A stretch of DNA of 48,602 bases from Candidatus Eiseniibacteriota bacterium (GTDB lineage: Bacteria; Eisenbacteria; RBG-16-71-46): positions 1-48,602 of the forward strand of contig JANLWK010000085.1 in NCBI GenBank assembly GCA_031364505.1, written 5' to 3'. Each line of letters opens with the position of its first letter. The stretch's first letter is position 1. Shown here piece after piece: positions 3,982 to 11,600 of the stretch. Below the pieces are notes generated by a model, which saw only the letters and a program-made list of their open reading frames with translations, was not told where the DNA came from and searched no databases. A program made the position numbers and the translations under genes.

Positions 3982-4308
3982 ATGCCGCTCTATCTATCGA
4001 GGTTCAGCTACACGCCCGAGACCTGGGCCAAGATGATCGCCAAGCCCGAGGATCGTCGTAAGGCCGCGCAGTCCTACATCGAGTCGGTCGGCGGGAAGCT
4101 GCACGGGTTCTGGTACGCCTTCGGCGCACACGACGGATACAACCTCTGGGAAGCCCCGGACAACGTGTCCATGGCCGCGGTCGCGCTGGCGATCGGCGGG
4201 GGCGGCGCGCTTCGCTCGTTCGAAACGACGGTGCTCATGACCGTCGAAGAAACGATGGATGCCCTGCGCAAGGCCGGCCAGGTCAAGTACCGGGCCCCGG
4301 GAGCGTAG
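3982..4308 (+). CDS. GYD domain protein
   Basis: MPLYLSRFSYTPETW...DRRKAA..IESVGGKLHGFWYAFGAHDG; AAGGAGG RBS upstream. Confidence 0.85.
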   Translation: MPLYLSRFSYTPETWAKMIAKPEDRRKAAQSYIESVGGKLHGFWYAFGAHDGYNLWEAPDNVSMAAVALAIGGGGALRSFETTVLMTVEETMDALRKAGQVKYRAPGA

Positions 4309-4329
4309 CGTTCGCGAGTCGCCCGACGA

Positions 4330-4359
4330 AGGGGCCGGGGCGACAGGGGCCGGGGCGAC
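4330..4359 (+). repeat. 15-bp tandem duplication with four G4 runs
   Basis: AGGGGCCGGGGCGAC x2. Confidence 0.8.
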
Positions 4360-4364
4360 GGGTT

Positions 4365-4448
4365 TCAGAACCAGTTGATGTGATACATGAACTGGATCCG
4401 GATCCCGTTCGCGTAAGACGTGAGGTCGATACCATGGACCGGCTGTGC
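4365..4448 (-). pseudogene. Possible C-terminal remnant of an outer-membrane beta-barrel protein
   Basis: Reverse frame AQPVHGIDLTSYANGIRIQFMYHINWF*, with alternating hydrophobic residues and a terminal Phe. Confidence 0.35.
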
Positions 4449-4501
4449 TACATCCGCGGTCCGGCGGGAATCATCATCGAGCGGGCGGAGCGGATCGGCT
4501 G

Positions 4502-5317
4502 ATGGCAGACCCCACGGGCGCGATCTACGACACGATCGGACGGGACTACGCGCGCGGGCGGCGCTCCGATCCGCGCATCGCCGCGCGCCTGACGACCGCG
4601 TTAGGCGATGCGCAATCGGTGCTCAACGTCGGCGCCGGGGCGGGATCGTACGAGGCGCAGGACAGGAGCGTCATCGCGGCCGAGCCGTCGACGGTCATGA
4701 TCGCCCAGCGCCCGGCGGACGCCGCGCTCGCCGTCCAGGCCCGCGCCGAGACGCTGCCGTTCCGGGACCAGTCGTTCGACGCCACGATGGCCATCCTCAC
4801 GCTCCATCACTGGGCCGACCGCGCCGGCGGACTCGCCGAGTGCGCGCGCGTGGCGCGCCGACGCGTCGTCCTGCTGACCTGGGACCCCGATGCCGACGCG
4901 TTTTGGCTCGTGCAAGACTACTTTCCGGAATTCGGCGAGGTCGACCGCCAGGTGTTCCCGGCCATGGACGCGTACACCGAGGCATTCGGGTCGGGCGTGC
5001 GTGTCGAGGTCGCGCCGGTGCCGGTCCCGCGCGACTGCATCGACGGCTTCCTGGGCGCCTACTGGGCCCGCCCCGCGGCATACCTCGATGAGGCGGTGCG
5101 ATCGAGCATCTCGTCGTTCGCGCGTTCGGACACCGAGGCCGGGCTCGCGCGCCTGCGCGAGGACCTGGCGACGGGCGCGTGGTACGCCCGGCACGGTCAC
5201 GTGCTCGCGGCGGACCAGCTGGACCTGGGCTATCGGCTGGTCGTGGCCAACGTCCCGGACCGCGCGGATTCACGGCTGGGAGCCGACCGAGCGGCTCGGC
5301 CCTTGGACATTGTATAG
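4502..5317 (+). CDS. Class I SAM-dependent methyltransferase
   Basis: YDTIGRDY..RRSDPRIA, VLNVGAGAGSYE motif I, LPFRDQSFDA, CIDGFLGAYWARP; start placed at ATG 4502. Confidence 0.88.
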   Translation: MADPTGAIYDTIGRDYARGRRSDPRIAARLTTALGDAQSVLNVGAGAGSYEAQDRSVIAAEPSTVMIAQRPADAALAVQARAETLPFRDQSFDATMAILTLHHWADRAGGLAECARVARRRVVLLTWDPDADAFWLVQDYFPEFGEVDRQVFPAMDAYTEAFGSGVRVEVAPVPVPRDCIDGFLGAYWARPAAYLDEAVRSSISSFARSDTEAGLARLREDLATGAWYARHGHVLAADQLDLGYRLVVANVPDRADSRLGADRAARPLDIV

Positions 5318-5408
5318 TCTGCACCTTGAGCTCAGGTTCAATGTTGGGCAGGCTCCCGAATGAGCGACACGTCGGGAAGGAGTCACATCATTGATGAAAG
5401 GGCCCTAG

Positions 5409-6566
5409 GTGGAACCCAAGGTCACATCGCCGTCGCTCGACTCACTCCGAGCTCGAATCGATGAACTGAACACACGACTGCTCGCATTGCTCCAGGAGCG
5501 TGCCGCCGTGGTGCTCGAGATCGCCGCCACAAAGCGGGCGCAGGGTCTCGAGGGTTACGATCCGCAACGGGAGTCCGACATGCTCCAGTCGCTGGCCCAC
5601 GGCGCGACCGGACCATTCGGCGAGGCGGAAATCAGGAGTGTGTTCCAGTCGATTTTCCGCGCCTCACGCGACCTCCAGGATCACGAGCGTCGCCGCGGAC
5701 TGCGAGTCCTTGCTCCGGATCTCGTGCGCAAGGAAGGCGTGCGCGTGGGCGACGTGTCGATCGGCGGGGGTGTCCCGGTGTTGTTCGCCGGCCCCTGCTC
5801 GGTCGAGTCGCCGGAACAAATGGAAACGATCGCGGCGTTCATCGCCCGACTACCGGTCCAGAAGATCCTGCGCGCCGGCGCCTTCAAGCCCCGCACCAAC
5901 CCGCACACGTTCCAGGGTCTGCGCGAGGAAGGACTGCGGATACTTCGTGACGTCGCCGATCGACACCGGCTGGCGGTCGTGACCGAAGTACTCGATACCG
6001 GGACGCTCGACACGGTCGCGGAAGCGGCGGACATGCTCCAGATCGGCGCCCGCAACATGTACAACACGGAGCTGCTCAAGGCCGTCGGCCGGCTGCGCAA
6101 GCCCGTGTTGCTCAAGCGCGGATTCATGGCGACACTCGACGAGCTGCTGCTGGCCGCGGAGTACATCGTGTCGCAGGGGAACACATCGGTCGTGTTGTGC
6201 GAACGGGGCATTCGCACGTTCGAGGGCCAGACGCGGTTCACGCTCGACATCTCGGCGATCCCGCTCCTGCAACAGGAGACGACGTTGCCGGTGATCGTCG
6301 ACGTGAGCCACGCCCTTGGACGGCGCGACATCCTCCTGCCGTGCGCGCGCGCCGCCATGGCGGCGGGTGCCGACGGGCTGATGATCGAGGCACACGATCG
6401 CCCCAGCGAGGCGCTGTCGGACGGATTTCAGCAAGTGCGTCTCGAGGAGCTGGCAACGATCGTCGAGGCATTGGGATGGACAGGCCGATCGAGCACATCG
6501 GACTCGAACGCGACGCAGGGTGTTGCGACCGAGCCCACGGCCGGAACAGGAGCCTTGCATGGCTGA
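5409..6566 (+). CDS. Bifunctional chorismate mutase / DAHP synthase (type I-beta, Bacillus AroA(G) architecture)
   Basis: N-terminal AroQ CM domain (LRARIDELNTRLLALLQERA..K..YDPQRE) fused to GPCSVES, RAGAFKPRT, QIGARNM, LLKRG, LCERGIRTFE, DVSH. Confidence 0.92.
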   Translation: MEPKVTSPSLDSLRARIDELNTRLLALLQERAAVVLEIAATKRAQGLEGYDPQRESDMLQSLAHGATGPFGEAEIRSVFQSIFRASRDLQDHERRRGLRVLAPDLVRKEGVRVGDVSIGGGVPVLFAGPCSVESPEQMETIAAFIARLPVQKILRAGAFKPRTNPHTFQGLREEGLRILRDVADRHRLAVVTEVLDTGTLDTVAEAADMLQIGARNMYNTELLKAVGRLRKPVLLKRGFMATLDELLLAAEYIVSQGNTSVVLCERGIRTFEGQTRFTLDISAIPLLQQETTLPVIVDVSHALGRRDILLPCARAAMAAGADGLMIEAHDRPSEALSDGFQQVRLEELATIVEALGWTGRSSTSDSNATQGVATEPTAGTGALHG

Positions 6567-7347
6567 CAAGAATGGACCCGGAACGGCCGAGGAGATCACA
6601 TCATCGCCGACGCCGCAGCAGCGCGATCAATTGTTCTCGGAGGTGCGACAGCGCATCGACGACTTCGACTTCGGCCCCAAGACGTCCATGGTGTTCGACG
6701 ACATGCTCGACCGCTCGGTCCCGTTCTACCACGAGATTCAGCGCATGGTCGCCGAAGTCGCGGTCGATTTCGCCGCCGACGGGACCAACGTCTACGACCT
6801 CGGCTGCTCGACGGCCACGACGATCATGCAGATCGGGCAGGGCCTGCCCGCCGACAAGACCGTCCGGTTCGTGGGCATCGATTCGTCCAAGGAGATGCTG
6901 GAGGTCGCCGACCACAAGCTCAACGAAGCCGGGTTCGCCGCTCCCTACACGCTGGAGCTCGGCGACCTGAACGGCCCGATCGTCATCCAGAACGCGTCGG
7001 TCGTGCTGCTCGTACTGACGCTCCAGTTCGTTCGACCCCTGTATCGCGAGCACCTGATCCAGAGCATCTACGACGGTCTCGAGCCGAACGGCTGCCTGAT
7101 CCTGGTCGAAAAGGTGCTCGGCGAGCACTCCACCTTCAACCGCCTGTTCATCAATCACTACTACGAGCTCAAGCGGCGCAACGGATATAGCCAGCTCGAG
7201 ATCGCGCAGAAGCGCGAGGCGCTCGAGAACGTGCTGATCCCGTACCGGCTCGAGGAGAACAAGGAACTGCTGCGAGGATGCGGTTTTCGCAACATCGACG
7301 TGTTCTTCAAGTGGTACAACTTCTGCGCCATGGTGGCGATGAAGTGA
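6559..7347 (+). CDS. cmoA: Carboxy-S-adenosyl-L-methionine synthase CmoA
   Basis: DFDF..VFDDMLDRSVPFY, VYDLGCST, LTLQF, LILVEK, KRRNGYSQLEIAQKREALENVL, FFKWYNF; ATG 6559 overlaps the upstream stop (ATGGCTGA). Confidence 0.9.
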   Translation: MADKNGPGTAEEITSSPTPQQRDQLFSEVRQRIDDFDFGPKTSMVFDDMLDRSVPFYHEIQRMVAEVAVDFAADGTNVYDLGCSTATTIMQIGQGLPADKTVRFVGIDSSKEMLEVADHKLNEAGFAAPYTLELGDLNGPIVIQNASVVLLVLTLQFVRPLYREHLIQSIYDGLEPNGCLILVEKVLGEHSTFNRLFINHYYELKRRNGYSQLEIAQKREALENVLIPYRLEENKELLRGCGFRNIDVFFKWYNFCAMVAMK

Positions 7348-8144
7348 ACGTCGATCCCGTGCGCACGGAAGGCCTGCCGGCGGCGGGGGTGCCGGATCGA
7401 CACGCGGCCGCGCCGAACGTGGCGGTTCGCGTCGGCAACGTCTTGTTCCACTACCGAAACGGCTTGTTCCCGATCACGTTTCTGGTGCTGGCGCTCGCAT
7501 CGCGCCCGCTGCTGTTCGGCGGCAGCCTGCGATCGGATGCCGTGCTCGACGCGGTCGGGCTGGCCGTCGCGCTGTGCGGTCAGGTGCTGCGGGCCATCGT
7601 GATCGGGCTCGCGTACATCGTCCGAGGCGGCAAGAATCGCCGCATCTACGCCGAGGATCTCGTGACCGACGGCTGCTTCGCGCACTCACGGAATCCGCTG
7701 TATCTGGGGAACATGCTCGTCTATCTCGGGCTGTTCGTGATCCTCAATTCGGTGGTCGGCTACGCGGTGGGTGTCCCGTTCTTCCTGATCGCCTACCTCT
7801 GCATCACCGCGGCCGAGGAGGACTACCTGCGCCGCCAATTCGGAGCCGCCTACGAGGCATACTTCCAGCAGGTGCCTCGCTTCATTCCCAGGCTGCGCGG
7901 CATCCGCGAGACGATGCGTGGCATGCGTTTCAACTGGCCGCGGCTGATCCGCAAGGAATACGGCGCCGCGTTCTCGTGGATGACGACCGCACTCGCGATC
8001 ATCTACTGGGAGTGGTACCGCGAGCGCGGTGCGGCCGGCTCCACGACCGTACTCGTGACCGTGCTGGCGGTGTGGACCGTGCTGCTGGTCGCGTACCTCG
8101 CCGCCCGCCATCTCAAGAAGACCAGGCGCCTGCACTCGGACTGA
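7344..8144 (+). CDS. ICMT/PEMT-family integral membrane methyltransferase, LmtA (lipid A phosphate methyltransferase)-like
   Basis: GNVLFHYR, LVTDG-F-HSRNPLYLGN, AEEDYLRRQFG.AY..Y...VPRFIP, IRKEY, KKTRRLH; GTG start overlaps the cmoA stop (GTGA). Confidence 0.8.
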   Translation: MNVDPVRTEGLPAAGVPDRHAAAPNVAVRVGNVLFHYRNGLFPITFLVLALASRPLLFGGSLRSDAVLDAVGLAVALCGQVLRAIVIGLAYIVRGGKNRRIYAEDLVTDGCFAHSRNPLYLGNMLVYLGLFVILNSVVGYAVGVPFFLIAYLCITAAEEDYLRRQFGAAYEAYFQQVPRFIPRLRGIRETMRGMRFNWPRLIRKEYGAAFSWMTTALAIIYWEWYRERGAAGSTTVLVTVLAVWTVLLVAYLAARHLKKTRRLHSD

Positions 8145-8193
8145 AGGCGGGGTGGACGTTACTCTGCGAGAAAGCGGTACGCGGTGCTTGGAA

Positions 8194-8610
8194 TCACGCG
8201 TCCTGGAGCCGGGCGCCGTGATGCCGAAATGCCACCCGGCCAGCCGCCACGCATTTCACCGCATCGATCACGTCCTGTGGATCGCCGCCCTTCCGGACCC
8301 ACCCCCAAGCCCCAACGTCCATGGCCTCCTCAATGAGCGTCAAATCATCAAAATCGCTGTAGATGATGGTTCGCACATTGGGGAACTTGGAGGCGAGCTG
8401 GCGAGTCGCGTCGATCCAATCCTTGCCCGGCATTCTTGGGCCGAGGAGAAGAACGTCTGGGAGGAGCGCTCGAACCTTGTCGGAGAGATCGAAGGAGCCG
8501 GCCTGGGATCCGACGTAGTCGATGCTCGCCTCGGCGGACATGACGTAGCTCAAAAGTTCGCCGACGTCAGGACTGTCGTCCACGACCAAGACGCGAATCG
8601 CCCTGTTCAT
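8194..8610 (-). CDS. Stand-alone NarL-like receiver-domain protein (atypical)
   Basis: IRVLVVDD...PDVLLLGPRMPG...GAWGWVRK; no HTH; phospho-acceptor position is Gly. Confidence 0.7.
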   Translation of the reverse strand: MNRAIRVLVVDDSPDVGELLSYVMSAEASIDYVGSQAGSFDLSDKVRALLPDVLLLGPRMPGKDWIDATRQLASKFPNVRTIIYSDFDDLTLIEEAMDVGAWGWVRKGGDPQDVIDAVKCVAAGRVAFRHHGARLQDA

Positions 8611-8684
8611 GAACTCACTATGCGCCTTTCGACCGGCGCGATCAATGACTTTTAGATGCGCGCAAGGTGCTGGCGCATCGGCAG

Positions 8685-11600
8685 TTAGTAACGCTGCTCG
8701 CTGTTCTCTGAATGAGCCAGTTCGGCCACGACGGAGACGAGGTTCGAGGGCTCGACGGGCTTGGTCAGGTGCCTTGCGAAACCCGCCTCCAGGGCCATGT
8801 CTCGCTCTTTCTGACCGCCCAAGCCGGTAAGGGCGACGGCCGGGATCCTGCCGCCCCGGCCCGGGGGAAGCGAGCGAATGCTTCTCAGGAGCTCGAAGCC
8901 GTCCTTTCCCGGCATGGCGAGATCGCTTACCAGCACGTCAGGTCTCTGCTCCCGTAGAGCCATGAGAGCCTCGGTCGCCGATGAGACCGCGATGACCTCG
9001 GCTCCCGCATCTTCGAGAACGCGACGGACCGGCTCCCTCGAGTCCGGCTCGTCATCGACCACCAGCACCATGATGCCCGCGAGCGTGTCGGACGCCCCGG
9101 CCTCGCTTCCCTCGGCCAGGACCGGGCGCGACTCCTCGTCGACGCCTCGAAGCGGCATCGTCGCGGTGAAGGTCGTTCCTTTGCCCCTTCCCTCGCTGCT
9201 CGCTTCGATGCTCCCACCGTGAAGCCCCATGATCTGCTTCGCCACCGAAAGCCCGAGACCCAGGCCGCCGTGGCTCCGGCTCGCGCTGGAGTCCGCCTGG
9301 CGAAACGCTTCGAAGATGAAGGGCATCGCTTCGCCGCTGATGCCTTCGCCGCTATCCGCGACGGACACGATCCCGCTCGAGCCGGATCTTCGAAGGCCGA
9401 CTCTGACGAGCCCTCCTCGAGGCGTGAATTTCATGGCGTTGGTGAGCAGATTCCCCAGCACCTGTTGCAGGCGCCCAGAGTCGGCGAGAACCCAGGTCGG
9501 ACCAGGCTCGATGTCTCGCTCGAGACGAATTCCGTTCTCCTGGGCCACCGGCTCGATCGACGCCGCGGCCGCCTCGACGGAGTCGACCAGATCGATTCGC
9601 TTGAGCTGAAGCCTTGCCTTGCCGGTTCCGATCCGGTGGGCGTCCAACAGTTCGTCGATGAGCTGGCTCTGGAGCTTGCTGTTTCGTTCAATGACATCGA
9701 CCGCTCGTCTCACGTCCTCCGCGCTCGCACCCGGGCGCTTCATGATCTGCGCCCAGGAGAGAATTGCGTTGAGGGGCGAGCGAAGCTCATGGGAGAGCAC
9801 CGCGAGGAACCTGTCCCTTGCCGCGTCGATCGTCGCCAACTCCTCGACCCGCTTGGCCAGTTCCGCTTCGAGCCGCTTCCGCTCGTCATCGGACTTCTTC
9901 CTGGACGTGACGTCGCGAAACACGACCACCAAACCCATGAGAACGCCGGCTTCCGACTGGAGTGCGGCGGCACTGTAAACGACATCGAAGAACGTGCCGT
10001 CCTTCCGAATGAATGTATCCGGGCATTCCAGAACAGACGCGCCGGTCTTCAGCACCTGGAAGTCCGCGCAATGTTCCGCGGGGAAGGGCGTGCCATCGGG
10101 GTAGTGATGGTGAGTGACGTCATGCATTCTTCGCCCACGAAGCTCCGTGAGGCTCCAGCCAAAGAGTTCCTCGGCAGCGGGGTTCATCGAGGTCACGAGG
10201 CCCTCTCCATCGACCGTGTAGAGGCCCTCGCTCATGTTGGCCATGGTGGCCTCGTCGAACGCGGCGGCGATGCGTAGCTTCTGCTCGGCTTCCTTTCTCT
10301 CGGTGATGTCGGTGTTCATGCCGACCCACTCGCTCACGGAGCCGTCGCTGTCGAGAACGGGAAGCGCCCGCACCGTTGTCCAGCGCCACTGCCCGTCGGC
10401 GCGCTTGAGGCGATATTCGGTCTCCACCGGAGCGCGCTCGGCCACGGATTGCCTCCAAAGTTCCCGAGCCGACTCGCGGTCCTCGGGGTGGATCGCGTCT
10501 TGCCACCCGAAGCCCCTCCACTGCTCGAAGGTCTGCCCCGTAAAGTCTCTCCATGAAGGAGAATCTTCGCTCGCGGCCCCATCGGCGCCTGTGGTCCAGA
10601 CGATCTGAGACGATGCTTCGATCAGCGCCTTGTATCGGGCCTGGCTCGCCCTCATCGCCGCCTGAAATTGGAGCATCTCGGTTACGTCCTGGATGCCGAG
10701 CAGGATCCGTTCTTGGGTCTCTTTGGAAGTGCCGAGCGGGCGAGCGCTGAGCAACATGGTGCGCCGCCCGATGGACGGGAAGTCGTGCGTGACCTCGAAG
10801 TTGTCGAACACGCTATCCCGATCCCGCACGGCCTCGAGGAGCCCTCGAAGCTCAGGAATGTTCCATTGCCCATTTCCGAGCTCGAAGAGGGGCGTGCCCT
10901 TCAATTCGGGCGACGGAATACGGAACCTCGCATGGAACGCTTCGTTGGCATTCTCGACTCGAAGCTCCTCCGTCAACACTAGAATGGGGTCCCTGGACGC
11001 GCGGATGATTGATTCCGCGTAGTCTCGTGCCGTTGCGATCCGCTGTTCGCCTCGCCTCAGGTCGTCGATGTCTACCAGCACCAGGACGGCGCCATCGACT
11101 TTGCTATCGAGAGTGAGATAGGGCCTGATCCGGAGCGAGAAGTACCGGCCGTCCTTGTCCCTGGCTTCGCGCTCGTTTTCCCTGACGGTGTCGATGACCT
11201 CTGCCACGAGGGCGGCGATGTCCGAGCTCCGCGGCTGCGAGTCCGGCAGATCTCTGGATCTGCGCTTCGCGGTTTGCTCTCTCAATTGTTCAGCGTGGCT
11301 CGTCAAGGCCGAGGCGTCGTCGCTCGTGCCCTCCTCGAAGACCAGGTTATGGCGCACGCTACTGAAAGGGCGGCCGATGTCGGTGGCAAGCAGGCCAAAC
11401 TGGCGCTCGGCCTGCGCGCTGAAGCGGCGGATGCTGAGATCCCGGCCTACGAGTACGATGGCCTGGCGGGTCGATGTCTGAAGATTCACGAGGTCGCTGT
11501 TGAGCCTGCCTAGCTCGACGTTTCGATTGGCCATCTCTTCGTTTACGGTCGTGAGTTCCTCGTTGGTCGACTCGAGCTACTCCTTGGAGGTCTCGAGTTC

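Follow-up and report, generated by a model that had tools for sequence, protein, structure and literature searches.

Why should the gene for a carboxy-S-adenosyl-L-methionine (Cx-SAM) synthase, cmoA, share an operon with the gene for a membrane protein rather than with cmoB? CmoA normally pairs with CmoB in the tRNA cmo5U34 pathway of Escherichia coli, an organism that already makes Cx-SAM. The question is raised by the window analysed here, a stretch of 48,602 nucleotides from a Candidatus Eiseniibacteriota bacterium (contig JANLWK010000085.1 of assembly GCA_031364505.1), in which positions 5409-8144 of the forward strand hold three overlapping genes for a chorismate mutase/DAHP synthase, CmoA and a six-helix membrane protein. 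An original prediction, made from the letters of the DNA, had read these genes as a self-contained operon without cmoB that would supply its own prephenate, make Cx-SAM from S-adenosyl-L-methionine (SAM) and carboxymethylate a membrane lipid. From support that is comparative throughout, we consider it fairly probable that the system uses Cx-SAM to carboxymethylate an anionic lipid of the membrane on its cytoplasmic face. The identities of the genes, the fold of the membrane protein, the linkage, the co-occurrence and a set of gene fusions were established. The features on which the argument turns are as follows.

5409..6566, + strand: gene 1, bifunctional chorismate mutase/DAHP synthase (open frame, 385 amino acids; NF009239 match)
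residues 13-90 of gene 1, about nucleotides 5445-5678, + strand: chorismate mutase domain CM_2 (PF01817, 69.3 bits)
residues 115-353 of gene 1, about nucleotides 5751-6467, + strand: DAHP_synth_1 domain (PF00793, 260 bits)
6559..6566, + strand: junction of gene 1 and cmoA, ATGGCTGA, where the gene 1 stop is overlapped by the cmoA start
6559..7347, + strand: gene 2, cmoA, carboxy-S-adenosyl-L-methionine synthase (ATG start, 262 amino acids; TIGR00740 match)
7344..7347, + strand: junction of cmoA and gene 3, GTGA, where the cmoA stop is overlapped by the start of the membrane transferase
7344..8144, + strand: gene 3, integral-membrane transferase with the fold of isoprenylcysteine carboxyl methyltransferase (ICMT) (GTG start, 266 amino acids; PF04191 match)

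The start/stop overlaps claimed at both junctions can be read in the sequence, and in other loci the cmoA and membrane open reading frames either overlap too or are separated by tens of bases.

The pairing of cmoA with the membrane gene

The arrangement seen in the window is far beyond chance, because it recurs in 155 of 160 related loci, with cmoA adjoining the orthologue of the membrane gene in either gene order (tblastn). These loci comprise the best 80 of 196 stretches that encode a gene 3 relative in species-representative genomes, together with 80 loci on metagenome contigs, and their phylum labels are those of the record titles. Within the genome loci cmoA lies directly 5' of the membrane gene in 79 of 80, the sole miss (L056) starting at a contig end; of the 80 loci on metagenome contigs, 76 have it next to the membrane gene (69 upstream, 7 downstream). 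Four of the five misses, namely L056 and three of the four on metagenome contigs, fall at contig or locus ends. A survey of cmoA beside genes of the ICMT/PEMT type had been proposed as a check on the original prediction, and the linkage is thus kept in both sets. All of the 64 neighbouring cmoA genes that were scanned, out of 79, match the CmoA model TIGR00740 (best E 4.2e-77).

The pairing is also broadly distributed. The 80 genome loci span at least 12 phylum-level groups: Eisenbacteria, Gemmatimonadota, Acidobacteriota, Nitrospirota, Planctomycetota (including anammox Brocadiaceae), Hydrogenedentota, Krumholzibacteriia, Binatota, Armatimonadota, Cryosericum, Verrucomicrobiota, Bacteroidota/Rhodothermaeota, and alpha-, beta-, gamma- and 'delta'-proteobacteria. 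One locus, L073, belongs to a metagenome-assembled genome and bears the label Gemmatimonas aurantiaca. Homologues of gene 3 numbered 869 in a word-seeded search (E <= 1e-10), and over 120 of these exceeded 52% identity; an exhaustive profile search of 1.84 billion cluster representatives returned 548 clusters (50% identity) at E <= 1e-30. When the open reading frames of the 80 genome loci were clustered, nothing was found to be conserved beside the pair except chorismate mutase or DAHP synthase. One Akkermansiaceae bin (G069, 5.9 Mb) carries two cmoA/membrane-gene pairs (L119 and L124), which may reflect either duplication or mixed strains.

Closer to the window, co-occurrence was followed in 60 related genomes, or 61 with the window's own, a set that includes one unpublished genome (G038), the source of one paralogue locus, on which no conclusion depends by itself. 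Among the 60 relatives, orthologues of gene 3 are found in G015 and G027 only, at 66-69% identity; both represent other genera of the same family as the window's genome, and both keep the three-gene cluster between quite different flanks. In the two genomes of the same genus (75% and 96% complete) the membrane gene was not found. cmoA itself is present in four of the 61 genomes (the window's, G015, G027 and G053), and among the relatives the membrane gene is confined to genomes that carry cmoA. Because its presence is patchy and the same cluster stands between different neighbours, the module can be regarded as accessory and as moving as a unit.

Two of these genomes merit a separate remark. 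In G015, a single-contig metagenome-assembled genome (MAG), the cmoA frame changes after LFINHYYEI and runs into the membrane gene (L029/L031), which is either a sequencing indel or a pseudogene; protein P0124 (528 amino acids), a candidate fusion of CmoA with the membrane enzyme, was rejected as this same frameshifted cmoA running into the next gene. G053, a relative of the same class, has a cmoA (216 bits) without a membrane partner, at about 4252-4995 of L127 (G053:C1:4597500-4607500), with a B12-binding radical SAM protein, dCTP-deaminase-like proteins and a NodU/CmcH-type carbamoyltransferase as neighbours, and this cluster may represent another use of Cx-SAM, on a nucleotide or in a natural product.

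CmoA, its prephenate supply and the membrane enzyme

Gene 2 passes the CmoA equivalog model TIGR00740 (236.8 bits against a cut-off of 193.3), while it stays under the cut-off of the enterobacterial CmoA model NF011995 (173.8 against 285). Its residues 20-262 align end to end with E. coli CmoA (4gek, E 2.3e-48) and with a Haemophilus CmoA structure (E 4.3e-46), in agreement with the identity first proposed for it. The arginine of its EIAQKR motif, R219, had been said to match that of the E. coli motif EISQKR, and profile alignment to 4gek_A indeed pairs the two; across 64 CmoA sequences K218 never varies, and R219 is kept in at least 90%. In E. coli CmoA we take Arg199 to be the arginine that binds the carboxylate of Cx-SAM. 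By homology, gene 2 is best assigned as a CmoA that would convert SAM and prephenate to Cx-SAM. Pairwise complex prediction for CmoA and the membrane enzyme (alignments A3 and A2) gave a score of 0.00, which speaks neither for nor against binding.

The window's genome (G000) is a MAG of 4.2 Mb that is 92% complete. It holds a single copy of cmoA, and its best match to the CmoB model TIGR00452 reaches 28.4 bits against a cut-off of 275, so that the lack of cmoB noted for the operon holds, at this cut-off, for the whole genome. Across 11 host genomes (the window's, with none, and two further sets with 0 of 5 and 2 of 5) cmoB is over the cut-off in two; that is, eight of the ten other hosts tested for a cmoB elsewhere are without it. 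Both cmoB-bearing hosts are gammaproteobacterial, and in each the sole cmoA adjoins the membrane gene, cmoB being placed on a different contig.

A second line of evidence comes from the source of prephenate. Gene 1 scores 446.9 bits with NF009239, the model for bifunctional DAHP synthase/chorismate mutase (cut-off 279), and both its CM_2 and its DAHP_synth_1 domain are present, which upholds the identity claimed for it. In passing this equivalog model gene 1 resembles the Bacillus-type bifunctional enzyme, from which it would differ as an additional copy inside a cmoA operon and not the housekeeping entry to the aromatic amino acids. The operon copy is the only one in the window's genome with a CM_2 domain, and elsewhere there are an AroH-type chorismate mutase on contig C123 (CM_1, 123.9 bits) and three further DAHP_synth_1 matches (contigs C51, C109 and C44). 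Because of this separate CM_1 enzyme and the other DAHP_synth_1 paralogues, the chorismate mutase/DAHP synthase of the operon is best regarded as an extra copy, not the housekeeping one.

This association is not peculiar to the window. Of the 80 genome loci, 25 have a chorismate mutase domain next to the pair, which in 16 belongs to a chorismate mutase/DAHP synthase and in nine, mostly in Thermoanaerobaculia, is a stand-alone protein of 110-130 amino acids. Moreover, among the 150 best family representatives, five of the 12 long forms have the membrane enzyme fused to a C-terminal CM_2 domain (Pfam; P0187, P0210, P0212, P0214 and P0218), and on five metagenome contigs (L128-L132) the fusion is encoded in one continuous frame and is followed each time by cmoA. 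Since CmoA consumes prephenate, the fusion ties the membrane enzyme to that metabolite, and it favours a user of Cx-SAM, because a plain SAM methyltransferase has no reason for a prephenate-making partner. The neighbouring and fused chorismate mutases, together with the separate housekeeping chorismate mutase of the genome, lend support to the prephenate supply envisaged in the original prediction.

The third gene had been likened to LmtA of Leptospira, and here the outcome is mixed. Gene 3 passes PF04191 (PEMT, 40.3 bits; gathering score 25) and stays under the cut-off of PF04140 (ICMT, 17.5 bits; cut-off 24), and its clusters in a protein atlas bear only the generic name 'methyltransferase family'. 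Its best NCBIfam match is the LmtA model TIGR04571 (91.5 bits, E 6.7e-26; cut-off 325), with residues 30-262 covering profile positions 10-245 of 252, whereas the ICMT match, at about 1e-10, covers the cofactor half only. All of the 63 family members scanned match TIGR04571 weakly (best E 2e-32). The likeness to LmtA is therefore real and nearly full-length, but distant, and gene 3 is judged not to be an LmtA orthologue.

The AlphaFold2 model of gene 3 (63 sequences; mean pLDDT 90.8, pTM 0.87) has six long helices. Residues 28-183 superpose on Tribolium ICMT (5vg9) with a VIA-align Z of 11.6 and a root-mean-square deviation of 2.7 Å over 137 residues, and on Methanosarcina ICMT (Ma-ICMT, 4a2n) with a Z of 11.1, against a background of 7.8 or less for unrelated rows; residues 194-266 form an additional C-terminal part, with the helical hairpin at 198-259 in the model. 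A Foldseek search of the model against the PDB gave no match at E <= 0.001 (top match 4a2n, E 3.2e-3), so the assignment of the ICMT fold relies on VIA-align and the profile search. Both ICMT cofactor motifs are kept, LV..G.F...R.P.Y and EE..L...FG..Y..Y. In the profile alignment Arg83 falls on Arg173 of Tribolium ICMT, which we take to hold the substrate carboxylate, and this correspondence suggests an anionic oxygen as the nucleophile.

The original prediction had also called for a basic residue able to bind the extra carboxylate of Cx-SAM, for example in RGGKNRR, a motif that is present in gene 3. In the loop motif GLAYIxRGG, R94, G95 and G96 are invariant in the 63 family sequences, and the motif is absent both from ICMT and from 16 paralogue loci without cmoA; W198, R200, K204, Y206 and K258/K259, on the predicted cytoplasmic side, are nearly invariant. 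Invariant and family-specific basic residues are therefore found, on what the model predicts to be the cytoplasmic face, and by analogy the RGG loop, R200, K204 and the other conserved residues of that side are candidates for binding the extra carboxylate. Lys91 and Arg315 of CmoB, and an arginine in CmoX, are described as binding the carboxylate of the cofactor (PMC10491745, PMC12783734). The R-N-P that stands in place of the R-H-P of ICMT was considered as a signature of Cx-SAM and rejected, as it is also found in paralogues without cmoA.

The C-terminus of gene 3 would have to be cytoplasmic, because in family members it is fused to a chorismate mutase domain, and the basic residues of loops 90-117 and 177-204 and of the tail (helices taken from the AlphaFold2 model) agree with this orientation. 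In one family member, P0234 (442 amino acids), a linker rich in alanine and lysine is followed by a C-terminal domain of the OmpA family (peptidoglycan-binding).

The acceptor and competing explanations

From these comparisons we infer Cx-SAM as the donor, an oxygen nucleophile and a membrane-embedded acceptor. In the route that we propose, the extra chorismate mutase/DAHP synthase would raise the supply of prephenate, with which CmoA would carboxylate SAM to Cx-SAM. The ICMT-fold enzyme would bind Cx-SAM from the cytoplasm and use it to carboxymethylate a molecule embedded in the inner leaflet of the cytoplasmic membrane, at an oxygen of a phosphate or carboxylate. Transfer to a lipid phosphate would yield a head group of the phosphoglycolate type, with a gain of 58 Da.

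Since LmtA is the characterised protein to which gene 3 is most closely related over its full length, the lipid A 1-phosphate, or a lipid phosphate like it, leads the candidates for the acceptor; lipid A specifically is a tentative choice, which we regard as somewhat doubtful. The acceptor must presumably be common to all of these diderm lineages, since the module brings no other biosynthetic gene. Some neighbours of the pair give weak hints that point to the envelope. Eight loci have, beside the pair, an OmpR-type regulator that scores best with TIGR01387, the heavy-metal (Cus/Czc-type) model, and six of these, from four phyla, also have a sensor kinase on the same strand and thereby a two-component system of heavy-metal/Pmr-like type (L041, L045, L065, L084, L088 and L106); the best match of the kinase is the heavy-metal model TIGR01386 in five of these, and L106 scores higher with PhoR/PnpS models. 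In addition, RND transporters, CusA/CzcA-like or multidrug, lie upstream in five loci (L061, L063, L108, L109 and L110), and an ArnT-like glycosyltransferase is found in four.

Several observations weigh against carboxymethylation of a lipid phosphate by this module. The LmtA cut-off is missed widely (91.5 against 325 bits), and the assignment to lipid A draws on distant homology only. No conserved neighbour of the pair in the 80 genome loci points to the acceptor, and the presence of lpxC in the window's genome and in four of five hosts from little-studied phyla is compatible with lipid A without being discriminating. As for the pairing, the membrane gene of L160 has 349 bases of sequence upstream and about 4 kb downstream without cmoA, and in five loci (L031, L064, L099, L203 and L204) the cmoA beside the membrane gene is incomplete without being cut by a contig end, through either sequencing errors or decay; the assembly names of three of the five suggest long reads.

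Among the alternatives, the one that survives best keeps Cx-SAM as the donor and moves the carboxymethyl group to a non-lipid acceptor, perhaps the terminus of a membrane-anchored protein, as with ICMT and prenylcysteine, or a small hydrophobic compound, for instance a quinone, an isoprenoid acid or a fatty acid. The linkage and the fusions would fit such an acceptor equally well, gene 3 shares its core fold and its cofactor motifs with ICMT, which methylates carboxyl groups of proteins, and no lipid-biosynthesis gene is conserved beside the pair. We nevertheless consider it unlikely, given that it is the match to LmtA (E 6.7e-26; best in the family 2e-32) which takes in both the N-terminal helices and the C-terminal hairpin, with ICMT matching only over the cofactor half at about 1e-10. 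Bacteria, moreover, are not generally known to prenylate proteins, and a module of two or three genes that passes from one phylum to another requires an acceptor that all of these phyla possess.

A further step away is the proposal that the membrane enzyme is an ordinary SAM methyltransferase and that cmoA is adjacent for some other reason, such as service to an unrecognised tRNA enzyme, the lowering of SAM or the raising of phenylpyruvate. Characterised PEMT and ICMT members do use SAM, the cofactor-binding motifs of gene 3 are standard, and the two of 11 hosts with a cmoB elsewhere would use the same cmoA for it. This proposal becomes improbable once it has to account for a pairing that is kept in 155 of 160 loci and under two gene orders, for a membrane gene that, among the 60 relatives, occurs only where cmoA is present, for nine of 11 hosts without cmoB, and for a chorismate mutase fusion that would be left without a rationale. 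It is least probable of all, and by our estimate very improbable, that this CmoA homologue makes a different SAM derivative, or that Cx-SAM regulates the membrane protein or is consumed without transfer: the stricter enterobacterial model NF011995 is indeed missed, but the protein passes the equivalog TIGR00740, aligns over its length with the CmoA structures of E. coli and Haemophilus, keeps the QKR arginine as well as the conservation of K218 and R219 across the 64 sequences, and has dedicated chorismate mutases beside its gene that fit the known requirement for prephenate. Carboxymethylation of an anionic membrane lipid with Cx-SAM is thus the reading that we prefer.

Surroundings, known systems and significance

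Little in the immediate surroundings of the operon appears to belong to it, and the genes that flank it in the window do not recur beside the pair in other loci. Upstream lie a GYD-domain protein (3982-4308, + strand) and a class I SAM methyltransferase (Methyltransf_11; 4445-5317, + strand), the latter ending 92 bases 5' of the operon. This methyltransferase was considered as a member of the system and rejected, as homologues are found in none of the 160 loci, and it is probably unrelated to the operon. Convergent with the operon, downstream, are a stand-alone receiver-domain protein (response regulator; 8194-8610, - strand) and a 949-amino-acid hybrid histidine kinase with several PAS domains (8685-11534, - strand). 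A scan of positions 4300-8800 for promoters and terminators found no promoter-like site and a single terminator-like site, which lies inside gene 1 and is below shuffle expectation; the GC profile showed no island signature and marked no operon boundary.

A CmoA that has left its tRNA partner is not without parallel. The CmoA/CmoB system of E. coli uses the same synthase of Cx-SAM from prephenate, with the gene for the synthase coupled to that for the transferase, whereas here the partner is a polytopic ICMT-fold membrane protein in place of the soluble Rossmann fold of CmoB, and its modelled active site, embedded in the membrane, would exclude a tRNA-like acceptor. [quoted passage not shown] TglF, MccB and CmoX, in contrast, are soluble enzymes with class I or C5-MTase folds that act on peptides, nucleotides or DNA; none is integral to the membrane and none has a lipid acceptor.

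The membrane enzyme has its own relatives, with which the comparison runs the other way. ICMT/Ste14 (4a2n, 5v7p, 5vg9) shares its fold over residues 28-183 (Z 11.1-11.6) and its cofactor motifs, whereas the gene 3 family is set apart by the invariant RGG loop, by an additional C-terminal hairpin that contains an RKEYG motif and by its linkage to cmoA and chorismate mutase. LmtA, the lipid A Kdo2 1-phosphate O-methyltransferase of Leptospira (TIGR04571), has both the ICMT-type core and a C-terminal helical hairpin; it is the closest characterised relative over the whole length, and it acts on a lipid phosphate from the cytoplasmic side. LmtA transfers a methyl group from SAM and, to our knowledge, does not need cmoA.

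As far as we know, Cx-SAM serves as a donor only for tRNA, for phage DNA and for two antibiotics of peptide or nucleotide type. No description of a membrane or lipid use was found in the consulted parts of the literature searched, as the original prediction had anticipated, and the parts consulted of a 2023 review of SAM chemistry and of the 2025 CmoX paper list no membrane use of Cx-SAM (PMC10491745, PMC12783734). The integral-membrane fold of the transferase would thus differ from those of the known Cx-SAM users, and the class of its acceptor would be new.

In L097 (5811-6449), and also in L149 and L055, a second, shorter ICMT-type gene lies 3' of the membrane transferase, and the database proteins P0126 and P0224 have two ICMT/PEMT domains in tandem. 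It is tempting to speculate that this second enzyme methyl-esterifies the added carboxylate, as CmoM does for cmo5U. In its fullest form, which we hold to be possible though rather doubtful, our proposal would have lipid A or another lipid phosphate decorated with a phosphoglycolate-type carboxymethyl group in more than 12 Gram-negative phyla by the first integral-membrane Cx-SAM transferase, under Cus/Czc/Pmr-like two-component control in some lineages and with the carboxylate methyl-esterified by a second ICMT-type enzyme, by analogy with CmoM, in others.

If the proposed carboxymethylation is correct, lipid and envelope chemistry would become a fourth area for Cx-SAM, and a function would be gained for a family of 548 clusters that currently bears the annotation 'isoprenylcysteine carboxyl methyltransferase family protein'. 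The modification would escape any lipidomics pipeline in which a gain of 58.005 Da is not sought. For the bacteria that carry the module, a carboxymethylated lipid phosphate would alter both the charge of the cell surface and its binding of metals.

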